In this document: piece after piece, positions 44,027 to 58,863 of the stretch
Position numbering within the stretch: position 1 is the first letter of the stretch
How the letters are laid out: each line of letters begins with the position of its first letter
NCBI RefSeq assembly: GCF_056712565.1
Contig: NZ_CM160072.1
Length of the DNA stretch: 64,000 bases
Strand: one strand, 5' to 3'
Position numbers and translations under genes: made by a program
Notes under the pieces: model-generated
Seen by the model: the letters and a program-made list of their open reading frames with translations, nothing else
Database searches by the model: none
Told to the model about the DNA's origin: nothing

Positions 44027-44962
44027 TTACAGTACCAGATCGCGATTCAGAACCAGTGCCAGTAACGCCTGGCGAGCGAAAATCCCGTTGCCTGCTTGCT
44101 GGAAGTACCAGGCGTGAGGCGTTTTATCCACATCCGTCGCAATCTCATCAACACGCGGCAGCGGATGCAGCACTTTCATATTGGCTTTGGCGTTGTGGAG
44201 ATCGCTGGCGCGAAGAACAAACTGCGCTTTCACGTTGGCGTACTCGGACGGGTCCAGACGCTCTTTTTGCACGCGGGTCATGTACAGGATGTCTACTTCC
44301 GCCATCACTTCTTCAATAGAGCTGTGCAGACTCCAGGCGATCCCTTTTTCATCGAGCATATCCAGAATGTATTGCGGCATTGCCAGCGCATCCGGCGCGA
44401 TAAAGTAAAAACGGTTGCCGTCGAACTTCGCTAGCGCCTGGGTCAGGGAGTGAACGGTGCGGCCATATTTCAGGTCACCAACCATTGCGACGTGGAGATT
44501 GTCCAGACGCCCCTGGGTTTCCTGAATGGTGAATAAGTCCAGCAAGGTTTGCGTCGGATGTTGGTTGGAGCCATCACCGGCATTCAGTACCGGTACATTG
44601 CCGGAAAACTCGGTGGCCAGGCGCGCTGCACCTTCCTGCGGATGACGCATCACTATCGCATCGACGTAAGTGCTGATAACCGAAATGGTATCGGCCAGCG
44701 TTTCGCCCTTTTTACCCAGTGATGTATTGGCGCTGTCGGAGAAGCCCACCACGCTGGCACCCAGGCGGTGCATGGAAGTTTCGAAAGAGAGGCGGGTGCG
44801 GGTAGAGGCTTCGAAGAAACAGCTGGCAATAACTTTGTGCTTCAACAGCTCTGGTTGCGGGTTCGCTTTCAGTTTCGCCGCTGTCGCCAGCACCAGATTA
44901 AGGTCATCGCGACTAAGGTCGTTTATGGAAATGATATGTTTCTGATATAGCGGATTAGCCAT
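44027..44962 (-). CDS. pyrB: aspartate carbamoyltransferase catalytic subunit
   Basis: 311-aa ORF; STRTR carbamoyl-phosphate binding motif. Confidence 0.95.
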
Positions 44963-44965
44963 CTT

Positions 44966-45100
44966 TTATCTCCTGACGCCTGGGCAAAAAAAAGCCCCTC
45001 GATTGAGGGGCTGGGAATGGGTGATCAACGGGAAGAAAAACGGCAGGCCAGCGTCTTTTTTCAGACGCGGTAAGACAAAATGTCGAACACACTGAACCAT
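44966..45100 (-). CDS. pyrL: pyrBI operon leader peptide
   Basis: Hand translation MVQCVRHFVLPRLKKDAGLPFFFPLITHSQPLNRGAFFCPGVRR (44 aa) immediately upstream of pyrB. Confidence 0.85.
   Translation of the reverse strand: MVQCVRHFVLPRLKKDAGLPFFFPLITHSQPLNRGAFFCPGVRR
44986..45012 (-). terminator. pyrBI attenuator terminator
   Basis: AGCCCCTC-gatt/aatc-GAGGGGCT hairpin followed by T8 on the minus strand, inside pyrL. Confidence 0.75.
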
Positions 45101-45189
45101 ACATCCTCCCGGCAAATTGTCCGGCATTATACTCAGCTCTGAGAGAGGATCAAGAAGATGATGCAGTTATAAAGCAAGGCAAACGGTTA

Positions 45190-45678
45190 TCATGAATATA
45201 TATTCAATTTTAATAAGTAATTAATTTGCTTGTGCACCAGGGCTGTACGCTTTACCACACGTGGTGCGACCCAAACGATATTGCTGCCAGCAATCACGCC
45301 AAGAATTTCTGGCAAAGCATGGAAATCAAGGATTCGTGCTACTGCCCGACCATATCCGGCGACGGTATGGATAAGGATAAATTCACCATTATGCTCGACA
45401 CTCAGGACCATTTCAGCGACGGATCGACCTGCGTCAGGTGTGGGAAGTAATTGAGGATTCACCGAATAAATTTTTTGTCCTTTTGTATTTCTAATTTTTA
45501 TGACTCCCAGCAATTTCAGTAGTCGTGAAACGGTTGACTGACTGATACTGTCAAAGCCATGGTTTTGCAAATCGCGGCGGATTTCCTCCTGTGAAAGATA
45601 ACTTTTTTCGGTAATCAGGCGCTGACAGACCGCCAGTTGCTTCTTTTCTTTGGCGGAGTAATCATCGTATTCCTTCAT
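45190..45678 (-). CDS. ArgR-family transcriptional regulator (ADI cluster-associated)
   Basis: ORF 45190-45744 trimmed to Met at 45678 preceded by AAAGGTG; ArgR-like DNA-binding region (SQSTVSRLLK...IRNTKGQ) and C-terminal oligomerisation region. Confidence 0.75.
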   Translation of the reverse strand: MKEYDDYSAKEKKQLAVCQRLITEKSYLSQEEIRRDLQNHGFDSISQSTVSRLLKLLGVIKIRNTKGQKIYSVNPQLLPTPDAGRSVAEMVLSVEHNGEFILIHTVAGYGRAVARILDFHALPEILGVIAGSNIVWVAPRVVKRTALVHKQINYLLKLNIYS

Positions 45679-45793
45679 AATGCACCTTTTATTTATTATT
45701 ACCTGATGATATTTTTCACATTTTATAATGTGAGAGTGGTTCATTTATCACTACACCAGATTTGAAGGCCGCTTTGATAAGCGGCCTGTCGCG

Positions 45794-47197
45794 TTAAATC
45801 ATCGCGGCGATACTCAGCACAATCATATTCAACATCGTGAGAATCAGCAGTAGCGGTGCTACCCATCTCAGATAACGGACCCAGGGTACACGGGCAATCG
45901 CCAGACCGCCCATCACTACCGCAGAGGTTGGCGTAATCAAATTAACCACCCCGGAAGCAGACTGATAAGCGGTCACCACCAGATCGCGTTGTACATGAGC
46001 AAAATCAGCGAGTGGAGCCATTATTGGCATCGTTAACACTGCAAGGCCGGAAGATGAGGGAACCAGAAAAGAGAGCAATACTTCCAGCCAATAGGTCACG
46101 TTGATGAAAACAGTGGTGGAAAGCCCTGAAACCAGATTCTCAGCACTGTGCAGAATTGTGTGCGTAATCATGCCGTTATCCATCACGACCACAATACCGC
46201 GGGCGATGCCGATAATCAGTGCCACACCAAGGAGATCCCGCGCGCCGTCAATAAAGGTACTGGTGAAGGTTTCTTCGCCCATGCGGGCAATGACACCCAC
46301 GATGACCGCAGCTGCCAGAAAGACAGCAGAGATTTCCGCCATCCACCAACCCAGTACCGCTACGCCGTAAATCATAAAGGCAAAGGATGCAGCAAAAAGT
46401 ATCAGGATCGCTTTGCGCGTGGGGGTAAATTCCAGCATCGTTTCTGAACGATTTCCCAGAAAATGCGCCTGGTTTTCAGCCATCTTATCCGCCACGATAG
46501 AGCTTTCCGGACTGTTGCGAACTTTGCGGGCATAACGCATAACCCAGTAAACACAAATCACGTAGCCTACTAACAGCAAAATAACACGCAGCAAAATGCC
46601 CTGAGTAAAGGGGATCCCTGCGGCGTTGGCAGCAATGACGGTAGCAAATGGGTTAATGGTTGAGCCCAGCGTGCCAATGCCCGATCCCAATAACACTGTG
46701 GCGGCAGCGACCAGAGGATCAAAGCGGGCAGCCATCATGACGGGCACCAGCAACGTGTAGAAGGGGAGTGATTCTTCCGCCATCCCATAAATAGTACCGC
46801 CAGCAGCGAAGAGCGCCATCAGGATCGGAATCATCCACTCTTCCCGACCATTAAGGCGAGTTGTCACTCGTTCGATACCGGCATCTATTGCTCCGGTTTT
46901 ATTTACTACTCCCAAAAATCCACCGATGATCAGGACAAACAGCGCGACATCAATCGCTCCCGCAGTGTAGGTTTGATGGTTGTACAAGCCGTCGATGGGC
47001 GCTAACAGGACAGCCGTAATACCCTGTGGTTGCGCCTCAACAGGTGCGTAAGTGCCTGCAACAGGAACTTCCTTTCCCAGTGCGGCATTTGTCACCATCT
47101 GATATTTTCCCGCAGGTACAATCCAGGTCATTGCCGCAACTAACGCAATCAGCACGAACAAGATGGTATAAGCGGTGGGAAATTTGAATTTACCCAT
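45794..47197 (-). CDS. membrane carrier, probably YfcC/DcuC-type anaerobic carrier family; putative arginine/ornithine exchanger of the ADI cluster
   Basis: ORF 45794-47242 trimmed to Met at 47197 preceded by GGAGA; highly hydrophobic multi-TM protein; family assignment from sequence recall only. Confidence 0.7.
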   Translation of the reverse strand: MGKFKFPTAYTILFVLIALVAAMTWIVPAGKYQMVTNAALGKEVPVAGTYAPVEAQPQGITAVLLAPIDGLYNHQTYTAGAIDVALFVLIIGGFLGVVNKTGAIDAGIERVTTRLNGREEWMIPILMALFAAGGTIYGMAEESLPFYTLLVPVMMAARFDPLVAAATVLLGSGIGTLGSTINPFATVIAANAAGIPFTQGILLRVILLLVGYVICVYWVMRYARKVRNSPESSIVADKMAENQAHFLGNRSETMLEFTPTRKAILILFAASFAFMIYGVAVLGWWMAEISAVFLAAAVIVGVIARMGEETFTSTFIDGARDLLGVALIIGIARGIVVVMDNGMITHTILHSAENLVSGLSTTVFINVTYWLEVLLSFLVPSSSGLAVLTMPIMAPLADFAHVQRDLVVTAYQSASGVVNLITPTSAVVMGGLAIARVPWVRYLRWVAPLLLILTMLNMIVLSIAAMI

Positions 47198-47253
47198 AAT
47201 GTGATCTCCATAATCACGGGCATACGCCACTCGTCGACGCATGCCCGTCAGGG

Positions 47254-48258
47254 TTAGTCGCCGAGAGTTGCTACCATCACCGCTTTAATGGTGTGCATCC
47301 GGTTTTCTGCTTCATCGAAAACAATGGAGTGGGCAGATTCAAAAACCTCATCAGTTACTTCCAGTCCTTTGAGGCCGTAGGCCATCTCGATCTCGCGTCC
47401 TACTGTGGTGTGCTCATTATGGAAGGCGGGCAGGCAGTGCATAAATTTGACTTCAGGGTTACGCGTGGCAGTAATCACCTGTTGATTGATCTGATAAGGT
47501 GTCATAAGACTCACTCGTTCTGCCCAGGCTTCTTTTGGCTCTCCCATCGAAACCCAAACATCCGTATAGAGAAAATCAACGTCGTATACGCCTTCTTCCA
47601 CATCCTCTGTCAGGGTGATTCTCGCCCCAGTCACGCTGGCGATCTCACGGCATTGTGTTACCAGCGCTTCATCTGGCCAGAAAGATTTTGGTGCCACCAG
47701 ACGGATATCCATCCCCATTTTTGCAGCACCAACCATCAGCGAGTTCCCCATGTTATTTCGGGCATCACCAAGATACGCAAAGCTCAGCTCTGGCAGCGTT
47801 TTGCCTGGCGCATGTTCCAGCATGGTCATTAAATCCGCGAGGATCTGTGTCGGGTGAAATTCATTGGTCAGTCCGTTCCATACCGGAACACCAGCGAACT
47901 CACCTAATTCTTCAACGATATTCTGACCATAACCGCGATACTCAATACCGTCATACATGCGTCCGAGTACGCGAGCGGTATCTTTCATTGATTCTTTATG
48001 GCCGATTTGTGAGCCGCTGGGGCCGATGTAAGTCACCTGCGCACCTTGATCAAAGGCCGCGACTTCAAAGGCACAGCGGGTACGGGTAGAGGATTTTTCA
48101 AAAATCAACGCAATGTTTTTACCGACCAGCGTTTGTTTTTCGTTTCCAGATTTCTTGGCGGCTTTAAGATTGATAGCCAAATCAATCAGGTATTGAATCT
48201 CTGCTGGGGTGTAATCAAGCAGCTTAAGAAAATTACGGTTTTTCAGTGAAGTAGCCAT
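47254..48258 (-). CDS. ornithine carbamoyltransferase (ADI-cluster copy, ArgI-like)
   Basis: ORF 47254-48285 trimmed to Met at 48258 preceded by AAGGA; STRTR and HCLP motifs; high similarity to argI product at 51620-52624. Confidence 0.85.
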
Positions 48259-48268
48259 GGGGATGTCC

Positions 48269-49213
48269 TTATAAAAATGGATCAAGCGTGGTTATGGGGG
48301 TATCAAGGCGAATAAGAGTGCCTTTGTCTCCGGCGAGAATTTCCGGACCATCTGCAAGAGAGCCGATCCCTGCAATGCCCCGGCACTGACTAACAAACTT
48401 TGCGCAGGCGGTGACTTTCGGCCCCATAGACCCGGCATCAAACTGCATTTCGTTGAGTAATTCCGGCGTGACCTGGGCCAGCGGGCGTTGGGTTGGCTTG
48501 CCCCAGTCGAGATATACTGCGTCCGCATCAGTGAGGATCAACAAGGCGTCAGCATGGATCTGACTTGCCAGTAGCGCGGCTGAAAGATCTTTGTCGATAA
48601 CCGCTTCAATCCCATGGTATCCATCGGCTTTTTCAACCACCGGAACACCACCGCCACCATTACAGATCACCAGATGATCGTGGGCGATCAGTGTCTGGAT
48701 GGCATCCCGCTCGACGATGCGTTTAGGTTGTGGAGAAGGTACGACCCGGCGGAAAGAGTGACCATCTGCTTTGAAAACCCAGCCTTTTTCTGCCTGTAGT
48801 ACCTGAGTCTGAGCGTGGTCATAAATTGGGCCGATGTACTTAGTTGGGTTACTGAAGGCGGGATCGTTGGCATCCACTTCAACCTGCGTCAGCAGAACGC
48901 TGATTTCACGTTGTGGTAGTTGATTTTTCAGCGCCTGTTGTAGCATGTAGCCGATCATCCCCTGGCTTTCGGCCCCCAGAATGTCGAGTGGATAGGGAGC
49001 GACATGGGCATAGGCGCTATTTTGAAGTGCCAGAAGTCCAACTTGTGGACCATTCCCGTGAACCAGTACAACCCGCCAGTGTTGAGTCAGTTGGGCGATA
49101 GTTTTAGCCGCAAGATCGATATTTTTACGTTGGATTTCTGCTTCGAGTGGTTCGCCTCGTTTAAGCAGGGCATTACCGCCGAGAGCGATAACCAGTGTTG
49201 GTTTGTTTTCCAT
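48269..49213 (-). CDS. carbamate kinase
   Basis: ORF 48269-49237 trimmed to Met at 49213 preceded by AAGGAAG; carbamate kinase-like sequence ([10 protein letters not shown]...). Confidence 0.85.
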
Positions 49214-49223
49214 GATCTCTTCC

Positions 49224-50447
49224 TTAGATACCGTCACGATGCAAAGGGCAACTCATGCAACGTGCGCCGCCACGTCCGCGGCCTAATTCATCACCGGGGA
49301 TGGGTAAAACGGTGATGCCTGCTTTGTCATATTTTTCGTTAGTCCAGATGTTGCGCTCGTAGCCCACTACCACTCCCGGCCGAAGCGTGAGCACATTGTT
49401 AGCGTCATTCCACTGTTCGCGTTCTGCCTCAAAGGCATCACCCCCCGTGGTGATTAAACGTACCTGGTCAATACCGAGGGCTTTTTCGATAGCATGGAGG
49501 AGTGTGCTTTCTTGAGTACGTTTCAGGCCGCCGTGACCGTCAGGTGTTAGCGTCCAGCAATTAACATCCGGGCGCACAACTTCGGGATAAACCGAGAAGG
49601 TGTCGATATCGATATGAGTCATAACGGTGTCAAGATGCATACAGGAGCGGTGTTTAGGCAGCTCAACAGCGATTACCCGTTCAGCCTGACGATGTTTAAA
49701 CAATGCCTGAGCAAGAAACTCGATTCCTTGTGGCGTGGTGCGTTCAGACATGCCGATCAACACGGCCCCCCGACCAATCACCAGCACATCACCACCTTCT
49801 AACGTGGCGTGGTCATAATTAATATTCTCGTCGCCGAAATATTTAATAAATTCGCCGCCAGCAAATTGTGGATGCCAGCGATAAATAGCGCGTAGATTAT
49901 TGGTTTCACGTTGGCGAGCAGGTTTTGCCATTGGATTAATCGATACACCGTTATAAATCCAGCATGAGGTATCACGCGTAAATAAATGATTCGGTAACGG
50001 CTTCATAATGAAATCATTAATATCGTGGGTATCAACCACCATATTTTTAATTGAGGCGGGAATTTCACTATAAGTCAGCCCACCACTTAAATGACGAGCA
50101 AGGTCCCGGTGTGACATCTCTGCAAGCCAGGTGCGAACGTCAGTAGCAAACGTAGGGCCGAGTCGGTAATCTGATATTTGTGTTTCCAGTAACCAGCTTT
50201 TGGCTTCCGGGATATCCAATGTTTGTGTTAGTAAATCAGTGAGTAACAGAACTTCTATCCCTTGCTGGCGCAGCGTATTGGCGAAAATATCATGCTCTTC
50301 ACCTGCCCGCTCAACGGACAATACATCGTCAAATAACAACTCCTGGCAATTGGATGGTGTTAGACGTTTCAGACTGAGATTTGGGCGATGCAACATAACG
50401 CTGCGTAGTTGTCCAATTTCAGAACCAACATAATGCTTTTCCATCAT
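49224..50447 (-). CDS. arginine deiminase
   Basis: 407-aa ORF; amidinotransferase-family sequence with C-terminal catalytic Cys region (RCMSCPL). Confidence 0.85.
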
Positions 50448-50567
50448 TATTCCTTTAACACTTTTTCAAAAATAAAGAGGAGATGGCTGCAAACAAATTA
50501 AATGCTTGTAGTCAGGTCTGTTCAGTAATTTTCAGATGCAATGATTCAGTTTATTTCTTCCAGAAAA

Positions 50568-50583
50568 TGTGACGACTTTCACA
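50568..50583. promoter_or_regulatory. perfect CRP consensus site TGTGA-N6-TCACA upstream of the ADI operon
   Basis: TGTGACGACTTTCACA read directly, about 120-135 bp upstream of the arginine deiminase start. Confidence 0.5.
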
Positions 50584-51094
50584 CCAGTGATGATATTAAT
50601 AATCGCAGTTAATAATATTTGATGCGGTTCTGATAAATGATAAAGAAACAAAATACGATAATGCATTAATACGCAAATATACGCAGAGTTATTCTTCGTT
50701 GTTAATTGATTGTTTTATTTTTCAGGAAATGCCTTTAAGTATAAAGCATTGATATTTATGTATATTTTAATATTCATTGCATATCTATGCGAAAGAATAA
50801 GGTGATTATTTTTCACAGCACTATTTTCACGGGATAACTATGACAGCACGGGCATTAAAAGCTAAGAAAATGAACTGTGATCTGACTGAGAGTTTTCTTT
50901 TAACATATGCAATAACAAGATATTAGGACCAAAATACATAGCTAAGTTATAAGATTTATGCAGCAAAACTGCATACAAAATTACTCCTGCTTAACATCAG
51001 TACAACATCTCCAGCAATAAACATGCGCAAGGGCAAAACCTGATGATTTTTCTATGGTGAGAGGTGGCTTTTTTTCGTATAAGGAAAGAAGTGA

Positions 51095-51574
<480 letters not shown>

Positions 51575-51583
51575 GTGATCACT

Positions 51584-51613
51584 GCCGGGGGGCGACCTGT
51601 GCCGCCGCCCGGC
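51584..51613. terminator. GC-rich hairpin between convergent tabA and argI
   Basis: GCCGGGGGGCG ... CGCCGCCCGGC stem with one mismatch. Confidence 0.45.
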
Positions 51614-51619
51614 AAAACG

Positions 51620-52624
51620 TTATTTTGCTAATGTAGCGACCATAACAGCTTTTATGGTGTGCATCCGGTTTTCTGCCTGGTCAAAGACAATACTTGCCGG
51701 AGATTCAAAGACTTCATCGGTGACTTCCATTCCACCATACAGACCGAATTCTGCGGCCATTTTTTTACCCAGCGTGGTTTGCTCATCATGAAATGCAGGC
51801 AGACAGTGGAGGAACTTAACCTGCGAATTACCGGTCAGGGCCATCATTTTGCTATTCACCTGATAGTCACGCAGCAGGGCAATACGCTCCGCCCATTTCT
51901 CTTTGGGCTCACCCATCGATACCCAGACATCGGTATAGATAAAGTCTGCACCTTTAACCCCAGAGGCGATATCTTCCGTCAAGGTGATTTTACCCCCGTG
52001 TTTTTGTGCCAGAGCACTGCATTCGGCGACCAGCGCAGCTTCCGGCCAGCATGCCTGTGGCGCGACCAGACGCAAATCCAGACCGGTAAGCGCCGCAGCT
52101 TCGAGCATCGAATTGCCCATGTTGTTACGCGCGTCACCTGCATAGACCAGCGTCATTTCGTTGAATGCTTTGCCGGGCAAATGCTCCTGCATGGTGAGGA
52201 GATCCGCCAGCAGCTGCGTGGGGTGGAACTCATTGGTCAGGCCGTTCCATACTGGCACGCCAGCGTATTCCGCCAGTGTTTCGACAATCTCCTGACCATA
52301 GCCGCGATACTGAATACCGTCATACATGCGACCAAGCACGCGGGCAGTGTCTTTAATCGACTCTTTGTGACCAATCTGGCTGCCGCTTGGGCCGAGATAA
52401 GTAACGCGAGCACCCTGGTCATATGCGGCAACTTCGAAAGAGCATCGGGTACGGGTCGAGTCTTTTTCGAAGATGAGCGCGATGTTTTTGCCAGTGAGTC
52501 TGGCTTCTTCTTTACCGCTTTTCTTATCGGCTTTCAGCTTCGCGGCTAACTGCAACAAGCTGTTGAGTTCAGCTGGCGTGAAATCGAGTAATTTCAGGAA
52601 ATGCTTATGATAAAACCCGGACAT
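51620..52624 (-). CDS. argI: ornithine carbamoyltransferase (anabolic)
   Basis: ORF 51620-52828 trimmed to Met at 52624 ([13 protein letters not shown]); 334 aa; ARG boxes upstream. Confidence 0.9.
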
Positions 52625-52647
52625 AGATCCCTCCTGTGGCCAACGCC

Positions 52648-52690
52648 TTAATGAATTAAAATTCAATCTATATGGATGATTATTCATTTG
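52648..52690. promoter_or_regulatory. tandem ARG boxes (ArgR operator) in argI promoter
   Basis: AATGAATTAAAATTCAAT then TGGATGATTATTCATT, matching the TGAAT-N4-ATTCA pattern, 24-66 bp upstream of argI ATG. Confidence 0.55.
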
Positions 52691-52785
52691 CAAGTCTAAA
52701 GCATAAATCTTTGTCACAAAGGTGGAGGCAATGTCAGTGGTGTGTGACAATAAGAGTATCGGCAGGACATTAAGAGGAATGAGCC

Positions 52786-53202
52786 ATGGCAAACCCGGAA
52801 CAACTGGAAGAACAGCGTGAAGAAACACGTTTGATTATTGAAGAATTACTGGAAGATGGCAGCGATCCGGACGCGCTGTACACCATCGAACACCATCTTT
52901 CCGCAGACGATCTGGAAACCCTGGAAAAAGCAGCAGTTGAAGCGTTTAAACTCGGTTACGAAGTGACCGATCCAGAAGAGCTGGAAGTTGAAGATGGTGA
53001 CATCGTGATTTGCTGCGACATCCTCAGCGAGTGTGCGTTGAATGCCGACCTGATCGATGCCCAGGTTGAACAACTGATGACGCTGGCGGAGAAATTTGAC
53101 GTTGAGTACGATGGTTGGGGCACTTACTTTGAAGATCCTAACGGCGAAGACGGCGACGATGAAGATTTTGTCGATGAAGACGATGACGGTATTCGTCACT
53201 AA
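52786..53202 (+). CDS. rraB: RNase E inhibitor RraB
   Basis: 138-aa ORF, very acidic C-terminus. Confidence 0.9.
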
Positions 53203-53224
53203 TTAAGCGTTGACGACAAAGGCT

Positions 53225-53315
53225 GCGTTACCTGATGCGCTACGCATATCAGGCCCAGGTAGTTCCTGCAACCTGGTGAATTTGTAGCCCGGATAAGGCA
53301 TTTACGTCACATCCT
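53225..53315. repeat. REP elements
   Basis: CCTGATGCGCTACGCATATCAGGCC / GTAGCCCGGATAAGGCA units after rraB. Confidence 0.5.
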
Positions 53316-53378
53316 GCATACTCAAAAAGCACGTGGTTAATGTTCGAATGCCCGCGAGTCTAAGCTCGCGGGCATTTT

Positions 53379-53900
53379 TCAAAGTTTGCGTAGCATCCGT
53401 ACTTCACAATCGACATGACCCGTGCAGCCAAGCGCATAGTCGATATGCTCAAAGCCCAAATGCTCATAAAGCGCAATGGCTTCCTTTAAAAAAGCGGTCG
53501 TTTCCAGATAGCAGCGTTTGAAACCCATTTCTCGCGCCTGCTCCATTGCCATTAAGGCCAGTTTTTTTGCCAGCCCTTTGCCGCGGATAGCCGGAAGAAA
53601 ATACATCTTTTGCAGTTCGCAAATGTCTGACTCACTCCCGGTTAATGGCGCAATCCCACCGCCGCCGACCACTTCACCCTCGTACTCAACCACCCAATAT
53701 GCGTGGCCAGGCTGACTATATACTTGATACAGCTCGTCAAGGTTCGGATCGGCGACGGTGTAGCCTTTATCAGCGGTAAGACCGTATTCGGCGGATACCT
53801 GACGAATGACGTGGGCGATAGCAGGATTATCGGCGACGGTAAGTTTGCGCAAACGGAGTGCGGGAGAAGCGACAACATTCATAGCATAGCTCAATTTCAA
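53379..53900 (-). CDS. yjgM: GNAT-family N-acetyltransferase
   Basis: 173-aa ORF (start could be Met at 53882); acetyl-CoA binding motif (RGKGLAKKL). Confidence 0.8.
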
Positions 53901-54074
53901 ATGTATGATTTATAGCTCACTTTAATACCACCCTCGCTTAGGTGGTGCAAGAAGAAGATAAATCAGAAAATATTACGCATATCTCTCTGAGATAAAGCGT
54001 ATTCTAGGCGAACCAGTATCAATTGACTGGAATTATTATCGGTATGAATGGAATTTATTTTAGGGATATAGTTC

Positions 54075-55262
54075 ATGAATGATGTAAACATCGGGAAAGA
54101 TAATTCTCGGCACTCGTTTGTTTTCACAGGCAAAGGTGGTGAGTATTTTCTTATTTGTCTTGTGAATTTTTCACTGACAATTATTACTCTGGGAATATAT
54201 GGACCGTGGGCATTGATAAAATGCCGTCGTTATATTTATCAACATGTGACACTCAAGGGGCAACCATTTAGTTATAAGGGAACAGGTGGTGCCATTTTTG
54301 TTAGCATGTTACTTATTGTGGTGGTTTATCTTCTCAGTATTTCTTGTTTTGCAGGTCAACACTTTGCGCTCGGTTTATTCCTGTTTGCTCTCTTGATCTG
54401 CGGTATTCCTTGTATGGCAGTGAAGAGTCTGCAGTATCAGGCGAACATGACCTCACTGAATGACATTCGCTTTGGCTTTAACTGCTCAATGATGCGTGCA
54501 TGGTGGGTTATGCTAGGACTGCCTGTTCTGTTGGCGTTAGTTTTTTGGTTCGCACTGTATCTTATTGCACAAGTGACGACATCGATAGGAGGGTTATTCT
54601 TTAACTTAGTCGCATTAAGTTTGCTTTCTGCCATCGGGCTAGGTGTTGTCCATGGTATAACCTATAGTAAATGGATGCCATTGCTGGGTAATAATGCAAC
54701 TTTTGGCATTCATAAGTTTTCTATTCAGGTAAACGTAAAAGAATGCATTAAAGGTTGCATGCTCGCAATATTAACCATGGTTCCTTTCATCATTGTGATT
54801 GGTATTATGATCGCACCAGTATTCCAGCAGTTAATGATGATGACCATGTTGGGTAGGTCTGATGCTGGCAGTGAGTTTGTATTACAATATTACCCGCAGA
54901 TTATGGCTTCTTATTTCCTGTATTTTGTCGCGATCCTTGTTTTTGCCAGTTATCTCTATGTCACGTTACGCAATCTGTTTTTGAATAATCTGACGCTGGC
55001 AAATGGGACAATTCGTTTTCATTCATCTGTTACCGCGATCGGTATGCTTCTGCGCATGTTGGCGGTATTAATGGGGTCCTCAATTACCTGTGGTCTGGCT
55101 TATCCCTGGCTGAAAATGTGGATGGTTAGCTGGATTGCTAACAATACCCATGTCCAGGGCGACCTTGATTCGCTGGAGTTAACCAATGATGACAAACCGC
55201 AGGATAGCGGTTCGTTAATGTGGATATCTCGCGGTATTATGCCGTATGTTCCGTTTATCTAA
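54075..55262 (+). CDS. yjgN: inner membrane protein YjgN (DUF898)
   Basis: 395-aa hydrophobic ORF. Confidence 0.85.
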   Translation: MNDVNIGKDNSRHSFVFTGKGGEYFLICLVNFSLTIITLGIYGPWALIKCRRYIYQHVTLKGQPFSYKGTGGAIFVSMLLIVVVYLLSISCFAGQHFALGLFLFALLICGIPCMAVKSLQYQANMTSLNDIRFGFNCSMMRAWWVMLGLPVLLALVFWFALYLIAQVTTSIGGLFFNLVALSLLSAIGLGVVHGITYSKWMPLLGNNATFGIHKFSIQVNVKECIKGCMLAILTMVPFIIVIGIMIAPVFQQLMMMTMLGRSDAGSEFVLQYYPQIMASYFLYFVAILVFASYLYVTLRNLFLNNLTLANGTIRFHSSVTAIGMLLRMLAVLMGSSITCGLAYPWLKMWMVSWIANNTHVQGDLDSLELTNDDKPQDSGSLMWISRGIMPYVPFI

Positions 55263-55269
55263 ATAAAAA

Positions 55270-55297
55270 GGCCGGAGCATGCTCCGGCCTTCGTTTT
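55270..55297. terminator. bidirectional intrinsic terminator between yjgN and valS
   Basis: Perfect palindrome GGCCGGAGCATGCTCCGGCC flanked by A-run and TTCGTTTT. Confidence 0.65.
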
Positions 55298-55308
55298 CAC
55301 TATGAGTA

Positions 55309-58164
55309 TTACAGCGCGGCGATAACAGCCTGCTGTTCAATCAGCTTCGCTTTCGCTTCTGCGTAGCCTTCCAGCTTCTCACGCTCTTTCGCGATGACCG
55401 CTTCCGGTGCGCGGGCGACAAAGCCTTCGTTCGCCAGCTTGTTCTCAATACGGCTGATTTCGCCTTCGATCTTCGCTACTTCTTTCGCCAGACGTGCCAG
55501 CTCATCTTCTTTGTTGATGAGGCCTGCCATCGGGATCAGCAGTTCTGCGCCGTCGACGATCTTTGTAACGGAAACCGGACCTTTATCATCAGCAGGCAGC
55601 ACGGTGATGCTTTCCAGACGCGCCAGCGTTTGCAGGAAGCCGCGGTTTTCATTTACGCGACGTTCTGCATCCGCGCTGCAACCACGCAGCAGCAGCTCCA
55701 GCGGTTTACCCGGCGCGATGTTCATTTCTGCACGGATGTTACGTACAGCAACGATCGCCTGTTTCAGCCACTCGGTGTCGGCCAGTGCCGCTTCATCAAC
55801 CTGAGACGCATCGTACTGCGGGAACGGCTGCAGCATGATGGTGTCGGCAGTGATACCGCAAAGTACTTTCACGCGCTGCCAGATGGTTTCGGTGATGAAC
55901 GGAATGATCGGATGCGCGAGGCGCAGCAGACCTTCCAGTACAGTCACCAGCGTATGGCGAGTACCGCGCAGTTCGGCTTCTGTTCCACCGTTCATTACCG
56001 GCTTGGTCAGCTCCAGATACCAGTCACAGAACTGGTTCCAGGTGAATTCATACAGAATGCCTGCGGCGATATCGAAGCGGAAGCTGTCCAGCGCTTCGCG
56101 GTACGCTTTGATGGTCTGGTTGAACTCCGCCAGAATCCAGCGATCCGCCAGCGACAGCGTCATTTCACCGCCGTTGAAGCCGCAATCCTGACCTTCCGTG
56201 TTCATCAGCACAAAACGGCTGGCGTTCCACAGCTTGTTACAGAAGTTACGGTAGCCTTCCAGACGCTTCATATCCCAGTTGATGTCACGACCGGTAGAAG
56301 CCAGCGCCGCCAGGGTGAAGCGCAGCGCGTCAGTACCGTGCGGCTCAATGCCGTTCGGGAACTGCTTCTCGGTGCGCTTACGGATTTTGTCCGCCAGCTG
56401 CGGCTGCATCATATTGCCGGTACGTTTTTCCAGCAGTTCCGGCAGCGAAATACCGTCAACCATATCCAGTGGGTCAATCACGTTACCTTTGGATTTGGAC
56501 ATCTTCTGGCCTTCGTCATCACGAATCAGGCCGGTCATGTAAACGGTGTGGAACGGCACCTGCGGTTTGCCATTTTCATCTTTGATGAAGTGCATGGTCA
56601 TCATGATCATGCGGGCAATCCAGAAGAAGATGATGTCAAAACCAGATACCATCACGCTGGTTGGGTGGAACTGGCGCAGTGCGTCGGTGTTTTCCGGCCA
56701 GCCGAGTGTAGAGAAAGTCCACAGCGCGGAGGAGAACCAGGTGTCGAGAACGTCTTCATCCTGACGCAGCGCAACATCAGCACCGAGGTTATTTTCTTTA
56801 CGCACTTCGTCTTCGTTGCGGCCAACATAAACATTACCCGCTTCGTCATACCATGCCGGGATACGGTGACCCCACCATAGCTGACGAGAGATACACCAGT
56901 CCTGAATATCGCGCATCCAGGAGAAATACATGTTTTCGTACTGCTTCGGTACGAATTGAATGTCGCCATTCTCAACCGCTTCAACTGCCGGTTTCGCCAG
57001 TACATCGGCACGCACGTACCACTGGTCGGTCAGCATCGGTTCGATAACCACGCCACCACGGTCGCCATAAGGAACGGTCAGGTCGTGCGGTTTAATTTCT
57101 TCCAGCAGGCCGAGCGCGTCAACCGCAGCAACGACTGCTTTACGTGCAGCAAAACGCTCCAGTTTCTGGAACTCTGCCGGGATTTCGCTGGAATAAACGT
57201 CAGATTCGTTACCTTTGGTATCGAACACCTGGGCGCTTTCACGGATATCGCCGTCAAAGGTCAGGATGTTGATCATCGGCAGGGCGTGACGTTTACCGAC
57301 TTCATAGTCGTTAAAGTCGTGCGCTGGGGTGATCTTCACGCAGCCAGTGCCTTTTTCCATGTCGGCGTGTTCGTCGCCAACGATCGGAATACGACGGTTA
57401 ACCAGTGGCAGAATGACATATTTGCCAATCAGATCTTTATAACGCGGATCTTCCGGGTTAACGGCCACGCCAGTATCGCCCAGCAGGGTTTCCGGACGGG
57501 TAGTCGCAACCACCAGATAATCTTTACCGTCTGCGGTTTTCGCGCCGTCAGCCAGCGGATAGCGGATGTGCCACATCGAACCTTTCGATTCGCGGTTTTC
57601 CACTTCCAGGTCGGAGATAGCGGTGCGCAGTTTCGGGTCCCAGTTTACCAGGCGTTTGCCACGGTAAATCAGGTCTTCTTTATACAGACGAACGAAAACT
57701 TCTTTCACCGCATTGGACAGGCCTTCGTCCATGGTGAAGCGTTCACGCTCCCAGTCGACGGAGTTGCCGAGACGGCGCATCTGACGGGTAATGGTGCCGC
57801 CTGATTCCGCTTTCCATTCCCAGATTTTGTCGATGAAAGCTTCGCGGCCGTAGTCGTGACGGGTTTTACCTTCTTCTGCGGCAATCTTGCGCTCAACGAC
57901 CATCTGGGTAGCGATCCCGGCGTGGTCAGTACCGACCTGCAACAGGGTGTTTTTGCCCTGCATGCGCTGATAGCGGATCATGGTATCCATGATGGTTTGC
58001 TGGAAGGCGTGACCCATATGCAAACTGCCGGTGACGTTCGGCGGCGGGATCATGATGCAGAAACTTTCCTGGCTTTCATCGCCATTAGGCTTAAAGTAGC
58101 CCTGCTTTTCCCAGTGCTCGTAAAGCGGCTGTTCGATATCTTGTGGGTTATATGTCTTTTCCAT
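55309..58164 (-). CDS. valS: valine--tRNA ligase
   Basis: 951-aa ORF; HIGH motif ([12 protein letters not shown]) and KMSKS. Confidence 0.95.
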
Positions 58165-58624: not shown

Positions 58625-58860
<236 letters not shown>

Positions 58861-58863
58861 CAA

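Follow-up and report, generated by a model that had tools for sequence, protein, structure and literature searches.

A compact tabA–argI junction lies within a divergent arginine deiminase block of a CFT073-like Escherichia coli chromosome

Introduction

The difference between Escherichia coli strains in yjgL (icaR) is already documented. An insertion adjacent to ‘argF’ (argI, for which RefSeq naming has ‘argF’) has been proposed as the origin of the gene (Silué et al., 2022, mSphere, PMC9241512). Of the six B2 strains tested in that study, five were without icaR, as was IAI39; these strains share an ‘argF duplication’ and are without bdcA and bdcR (PMC9241512). Experiments with a deletion and with inducible expression have addressed the arc operon of strain Nissle 1917 (PMC10659395), and a plasmid-borne arc operon with arcA and arcC homologues has been described in ESBL-producing E. 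coli (Billard-Pomares et al., 2019, as cited in PMC7671891). A literature search on CFT073 arginine deiminase found nothing relevant. For the spacer between tabA and argI, the closest described elements are bidirectional intrinsic terminators and REP-type palindromes, in which one GC-rich imperfect palindrome likewise occupies a very short spacer between convergent genes.

Here, a 64-kb stretch of DNA (64,000 nucleotides; the window) from a CFT073-like E. coli chromosome was analysed. Its tabA–argI junction repeats, at an identical locus, what Silué et al. observed as the icaR polymorphism (PMC9241512), and their ‘argF duplication’ is arcB of the window. However, tabA was stated there to be lost, whereas the window contains a full-length, divergent tabA homologue (designated tabA′), and that study is without the argI-internal breakpoint, the family-wide compact junction and the foreign block origin proposed below. 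The plasmid operon of ESBL-producing strains, as far as the citing paper describes it, belongs to the same pathway but is only ~77% identical over arcC–arcA and without linkage to tabA or argI. The hairpin of the window differs from the convergent-gene 3′ hairpin class in being without a U-tract and in occurring in one copy per genome. The finding is real but ordinary: what is added is that tabA appears to be replaced, that the right breakpoint lies in argI, and that the compact junction is common and probably ancestral. Beyond such bookkeeping, its significance is small.

Results

The window was compared with E. coli K-12 and with the B2 strain ST131. The results showed that it is collinear with both and 97–100% identical to them up to 45135. 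In a base-by-base comparison with ST131, identity is complete to 45135, divergence starts at 45136, mismatches are dense to 52028 and the next mismatch is at 52130; identity is ~75% over tabA and ~80% over argI positions 51633–52033, and returns to 98% from ~52033. Over 51000–52700, identity of the window to strain HS13-1 is 100% and to CFT073 99.9%. The divergent block (Table 1) contains an argR-like gene, a yfcC-like gene, arcB, arcC, arcA, tabA′, the spacer and the last ~135 codons of argI, with its boundaries upstream of pyrL and inside argI, and stands where K-12-type strains have yjgH-bdcA-bdcR-tabA-yjgL and the 3′ end of argI. A preliminary description of this DNA had treated the compact junction and the arginine deiminase (ADI) island as separate signs of gene gain and loss, to be checked by alignment of the whole interval. 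That alignment, to K-12 and ST131, did reveal the yjgL difference, but as part of a divergent block and not as a mere difference at the junction, and both signs fall within a single 6.9-kb block with its right edge inside argI. As read from this pattern of divergence, the junction and the ADI genes appear to be one contiguous replaced block rather than the products of two independent events.

Table 1 Features of the divergent block and of the tabA′–argI junction (positions in the window)
Feature	Position	Strand	Basis or remark
Divergent block, putative replacement	45136–52028	.	6,893 bp; from just upstream of pyrL to argI codon ~199
ArgR-like regulator gene of the arc cluster	45190–45678	-	CFT073 annotation ‘arginine repressor’
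YfcC-family putative basic amino acid antiporter gene	45794–47197	-	CFT073 annotation
arcB, catabolic-type ornithine carbamoyltransferase	47254–48258	-	NF003286, 543.7 bits (cut-off 515)
arcC, carbamate kinase	48269–49213	-	TIGR00746, 381.6 (cut-off 358.25)
arcA, arginine deiminase	49224–50447	-	TIGR01078, 531.2 (cut-off 489.1)
AT-rich divergent intergenic region, arcA/tabA′	50448–51121	.	674 bp, about 30% GC
tabA′, full-length DUF386 (YhcH/YjgK/YiaL) protein, 150 aa	51122–51574	+	TIGR00022, 192 bits (cut-off 45.5); PF04074, 147 bits
Convergent spacer	51575–51619	.	Exactly 45 bp, stop codon to stop codon
GC-rich hairpin TGCCGGGGGGCG / CGCCGCCCGGCA	51583–51614	.	No T-run after it on either strand
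argI 3′ part, codons ~200–334, of the putatively imported block	51620–52028	-	77–82% nucleotide identity to outside loci
argI 5′ part, codons 1–~199, resident E. coli	52029–52624	-	97–98% to K-12 and ST131

The open reading frames in 45136–52028 are all arc genes, tabA′ or argI, with no integrase or transposase gene among them; no flanking direct repeats were found at the block boundaries, and GC content within the block is E. coli-like, at 43–53% except in one regulatory spacer. A classical mobile island (integrase, tRNA, direct repeats) was therefore rejected, there being no integrase, no boundary repeats and no compositional anomaly. Because the flanks are conserved and syntenic, the simplest mechanism appears to be homologous recombination with one anchor point upstream of pyrL and the other within argI.

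The proteins of the arc cluster were compared with curated models. ArcA, ArcB (the ornithine carbamoyltransferase, OTC) and ArcC each exceed the cut-off of their model, as expected of an arginine deiminase operon. The ArgR-like protein scores 110 with the ArgR model against a cut-off of 194, and the YfcC-family protein 286 bits with NF008611 against a cut-off of 500. At the nucleotide level, arcB is about 68% identical to argI. Two promoter-like sites facing arcA, which are consensus matches only, were located on the - strand of the AT-rich intergenic region (50705–50676 and 50793–50764), and this region is likely to be the arc control region. The arc genes of the window are 77–84% identical in nucleotide sequence to those of the best-matching species. 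The arc clusters located at pyrB–argI in Citrobacter spp., Salmonella enterica subsp. diarizonae, Kosakonia and Enterobacter have the same gene order and orientation as that of the window; at this level of identity, no sampled species is the source. A further difference was seen at the 3′ end of arcC (~48296), where five G are present in the window and six in CFT073; the change shifts the last codons, and the protein ends in a different stretch of 11 residues here and in ...DTPHNHA in CFT073.

Next to the arc genes, tabA′ shares the position of K-12 tabA and likewise converges on argI. Identity between the two genes is 73.6% in nucleotide and 83% in amino acid sequence, compared with 98% for pyrB and 97% for the 5′ part of argI, and tabA of other B2 strains is 96–98% identical to K-12 tabA. 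The gene, named tabA in the preliminary description, is therefore not the K-12 allele, and descent of tabA′ as a vertical orthologue of K-12 tabA (b4252) appears unlikely because its divergence is out of line with that of the flanking core genes. The best match in another species was that of C. amalonaticus (89% amino acid and 76.4% nucleotide identity), and nucleotide identity of tabA′ is 72–76% whether the locus compared is from Escherichia, Citrobacter or Salmonella. Five other Escherichia loci were retrieved; K-12-type tabA is 88–96% identical to four of them, a range shared by pyrB and the 5′ part of argI, and 78% identical to that of Escherichia sp. MOD1-EC7003. The tabA alleles of E. 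coli are bimodal: 591 genomes have one at least 99% identical to that of the window, 4,814 have one at 60–80% and only seven lie between. These results suggest that tabA was replaced, not lost, in the block carriers. RefSeq names tabA′ of the CFT073, Nissle and 536 type only ‘YhcH/YjgK/YiaL family protein’, and the ‘tabA’ of such strains should not be handled as a K-12 allele.

The right edge of the block divides argI (51620–52624, - strand), which encodes a 334-aa ornithine carbamoyltransferase scoring 771 bits with the ArgI-type model NF009213. Its 3′ part is equally far from K-12, ST131, other Escherichia, Citrobacter and Salmonella. There are 20 amino acid differences between the encoded ArgI and that of K-12, and 18 lie after residue 199. 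The N-terminal, carbamoyl-phosphate-binding part of the chimera is native E. coli, and the C-terminal ~135 residues with the 18 substitutions would have come with the arc operon; ArgI of CFT073-, Nissle- and 536-type strains is best regarded as a mosaic. The argI gene of Escherichia sp. MOD1-EC7003 is also mosaic, with 100 nt (argI nt 600–700) that are 98% identical to the putatively foreign segment of the window.

The spacer separates a tabA-family TAA stop at 51572–51574 from the complement of the argI stop, TTA, at 51620–51622, and its coordinates and folding agree with the convergent arrangement, the 45-bp gap and the GC-rich hairpin that had been noticed earlier. The hairpin is the sole structured element between the two convergent open reading frames. 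Its arms (51583–51594 and 51603–51614) are 12 nt each, with 11 of the 12 positions paired (92%) and 8 nt between them. As RNA, the + strand of the spacer folds with −28.7 kcal/mol (z −3.1; none of 200 shuffles was equally stable) and the - strand with −27.8 kcal/mol (z −3.1). The G-run in the 5′ arm (51587–51592) is variable in length, with six G here and five in CFT073, whose spacer is consequently 44 bp. The 45-bp length is a minority form: 108 of the 596 spacers found in complete E. coli genomes match at 99% or more, and most others sampled are 44 bp.

The hairpin has the stable GC-rich stem-loop at a 3′ end that is expected of an intrinsic terminator. A U-run 3′ of the stem is absent, however, the + strand continuing AAAACG and the - strand AGTGATCAC, and the promoter/terminator scan called no terminator at this hairpin; a canonical intrinsic terminator was rejected because of the missing U-tract. 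As a 32-nt palindrome between two stop codons, the element also fits the description of a REP, an imperfect extragenic 3′ palindrome of ~35 nt. A search of the window with up to three mismatches found one match only, and assignment to REP/BIME was rejected on copy number, the spacer being present at one place in each of 596 genomes and absent from others. The Rfam scan of 50400–53300 (E ≤ 1) matched nothing. Most likely, the hairpin is a shared 3′-end element of both convergent transcripts, terminator-like and/or a barrier to exonucleases, with the probable role of setting or shielding the 3′ ends of the two mRNAs.

A species scan with the TabA-like protein, using one genome of each of 100,044 species, gave 80 loci that were kept. 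The results showed two recurrent architectures across the Enterobacteriaceae. The first, pyrB, argR-like, yfcC-like, arcB, arcC, arcA and tabA converging on argI, followed by rraB, was found in Citrobacter spp., Salmonella enterica subsp. diarizonae, Kosakonia, Enterobacter, Trabulsiella, Yokenella and Buttiauxella. The second, pyrB and tabA converging on argI, then rraB, without the ADI operon, was found in Klebsiella, Kluyvera, Raoultella, Pseudocitrobacter, Escherichia whittamii, Escherichia sp. E1V33 and ‘E. coli’ E69; three further architectures occurred among the other Escherichia loci fetched. Among the 69 species loci holding both genes, the tabA–argI spacer measures 37–125 bp in 60 and about 210 bp in two, and seven have 0.5–6 kb inserted. 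Every short spacer folds strongly, with a stability of at least 0.3 kcal/mol per nt and a median z of −4. A structured element is kept at this position in more than 60 species, although its sequence turns over. RNAalifold on 14 spacers from different genera returned only a trivial consensus of four pairs, the hairpins being too unlike to align, and conservation of the hairpin was accordingly judged by folding each spacer singly and not by covariation. Spacers of 44–46 bp occur in four other Escherichia loci, namely those of E. whittamii, Escherichia sp. E1V33 and two records titled ‘E. coli’, and these contain a similar hairpin (CCGG(T/A)GGCG...CGCCTCCGG; an example is GTGGATTATGCCGGAGGCGACGTTACGCCGCCTCCGGTACTGGCG). 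Several Citrobacter and Klebsiella loci have typical REP-like palindromes (GCCGGATG...CCGGCCTAC) at the same position.

In K-12 MG1655 the gene order is tabA (b4252), yjgL (b4253) and argI (b4254), and 1,992 bp, yjgL included, lie between the tabA and argI stop codons, not the 45 bp of the window. No homologue of YjgL, BdcA or BdcR is encoded in the window (tblastn with K-12 YjgL gave no match). The observation that K-12 has yjgL between the two genes and that it is missing here was thus confirmed. When K-12 was compared with Escherichia sp. E1V33, homology ended exactly at the tabA stop and resumed at the argI stop, and the K-12 yjgL DNA is AT-rich (25–38% GC). Both features suggest that yjgL was added, in agreement with the insertion next to ‘argF’ proposed by Silué et al. 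(PMC9241512). With 60 of 69 loci compact, the compact junction is the common and probably the ancestral state, and yjgL looks like an addition rather than the baseline; the direction implied by the earlier reading, a loss of yjgL in this lineage, is reversed.

The full block was found in 596 of 5,426 complete E. coli genomes (about 11%), in 593 of them at 99% identity or more. K-12-type tabA is present in 4,823 genomes, where a yjgL-related gene almost always comes next; the yjgL alleles of E. coli are numerous, and some contain IS insertions or frameshifts. Carriers of the block include CFT073, Nissle 1917, 536, NRG 857C, ATCC 25922, APEC O2:K1 strains and IAI39, phylogroups among the 596 carriers being assigned from named reference strains only. 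In the B2 strain S88 and in one ST131 strain, also B2, the interval is of the K-12 type and yjgL is frameshifted, which differs from the B2 losses reported in PMC9241512. The proposal that pyrB–argI is a hotspot is in keeping with the two main E. coli haplotypes, the many yjgL alleles and the seven species loci with inserts, but its framing in terms of loss is not. Compared with the window, phylogroup F strain IAI39 is ~0.4% different over 44338–56800 and ~2.4% different further upstream, implying that the block is also exchanged between lineages as part of larger recombined fragments. A different arcC–arcA pair, ~77% identical to that of the window, occurs in E. coli at 297 places on plasmids and elsewhere on chromosomes; this pair probably corresponds to the ESBL-associated operon described by Billard-Pomares et al. 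(2019), as cited in PMC7671891.

Discussion

We consider it likely that the 45-bp junction is the usual enterobacterial arrangement, carried inside a 6.9-kb block that was imported by homologous recombination, and not the scar of a yjgL deletion. The block would have replaced the resident segment from yjgH through bdcA, bdcR, tabA and yjgL to the 3′ end of argI, with one crossover just upstream of pyrL and the other in argI near codon 199. The donor would be a syntenic, roughly genus-level-divergent member of the Enterobacteriaceae. The exchange would have left the recipient with a mosaic ArgI and with a divergent TabA homologue gained by horizontal transfer. In E. coli the block now segregates, including in B2 (CFT073, Nissle 1917 and 536) and in the phylogroup F strain IAI39. 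In the majority haplotype, yjgL (icaR) and its own flanking hairpins fill the presumed ancestral spacer site from stop codon to stop codon. No donor was found among the 100,044 species genomes, in which C. amalonaticus was best (89% amino acid and 76% nucleotide identity). A search of 5.8 billion protein clusters with TabA′ recovered E. coli-type relatives at 97–99% and one 1.6-kb metagenome contig at 94%, with nothing else above 87%; the donor is thus unsampled.

The import is read from the pattern of divergence, and an old polymorphism retained inside Escherichia would be its alternative. In the form of vertical retention, pyrB-ADI-tabA-argI would be original in Escherichia and kept in part of B2 and F, the K-12-type interval being derived or imported. 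B2 and F are early-branching E. coli groups. The sharing of this architecture by Citrobacter, Salmonella, Kosakonia, Enterobacter and others is in line with retention, as is the failure of the species scan and the protein-cluster search to find a donor. However, K-12-type tabA and the argI 3′ end are 88–96% identical to E. whittamii, E1V33 and the two other Escherichia-titled loci, whereas the alleles of the window are ~72–80% identical to all of these. Within argI, identity jumps from 80% to 98%, diversity in the block does not exceed 0.5% across 593 genomes, and the IAI39 copy of the block is far more similar than its flanks. Moreover, the other ADI-bearing Escherichia, MOD1-EC7003 (L009 1318–8477), has a different and independent ADI–tabA cassette, 87.5% identical to C. 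amalonaticus and 77–84% to the window. Retention is therefore considered unlikely.

Much the same comparisons bear on a simple loss, in which a K-12-like ancestor deleted yjgL, leaving 45 bp, and gained the ADI genes separately. K-12-type strains do have yjgL here, and the gene decays often, as seen in the frameshifts of ST131 and S88 and in the IS insertions. A deletion between otherwise resident genes fits poorly with a flanking tabA and argI 3′ end that are only 74% and 80% identical to the K-12 type, against 96–98% in other B2 strains; with a spacer hairpin that resembles those of yjgL-less Escherichia loci and contains no K-12 yjgL flank sequence; and with divergence that is unbroken from 45136 to 52028. 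Such a loss is very improbable. Hardly credible is gene conversion of the argI 3′ end by its paralogue arcB, which was rejected: arcB, oriented like argI and 4.4 kb distant from it, has a 59-nt stretch 83% identical to the argI 3′ end, but the two genes are ~68% identical overall and no closer in the 3′ region, whereas a conversion tract would be nearly identical.

If the block was imported by homologous recombination, the locus is a clean example of how an arc operon may enter and spread in E. coli by homologous replacement at conserved flanks, without a mobile element. Comparisons of yjgL/icaR should start from the 45-bp hairpin spacer and count the presence of yjgL as an insertion. A functional reading, to which we give little credence, is that the swap made a chimeric anabolic ornithine carbamoyltransferase and that the junction was selected, the imported ArgI C-terminal part and TabA′ being matched to ArcB and the arc system. 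If so, this matching could limit mixed trimers or futile cycling, and the strict tabA–argI pairing in at least 60 species would hint at a role of TabA in arginine/carbamoyl metabolism.

Three further differences were seen outside the block. A second strongly divergent segment lies at 53831–55300 and contains a yjgN-family (DUF898/YjgN) gene (54075–55262, + strand), which is ~70% nucleotide-identical to yjgN of K-12 and ST131, the adjoining yjgM and valS being 93–97% identical; this segment accompanies the arc block in IAI39. In the spacer between rraB and yjgM, ~97 bp (53231–53327) match the K-12 mgtA–ridA intergenic region on the opposite strand at 82%; the stretch is absent from the rraB–yjgM spacer of K-12 and ST131 and is probably a dispersed intergenic repeat. 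In the holC–pepA spacer, 58652–58861 aligns twice, at 90–93%, to neighbouring positions of ST131, indicating a difference in copy number of a ~105-bp repeat.
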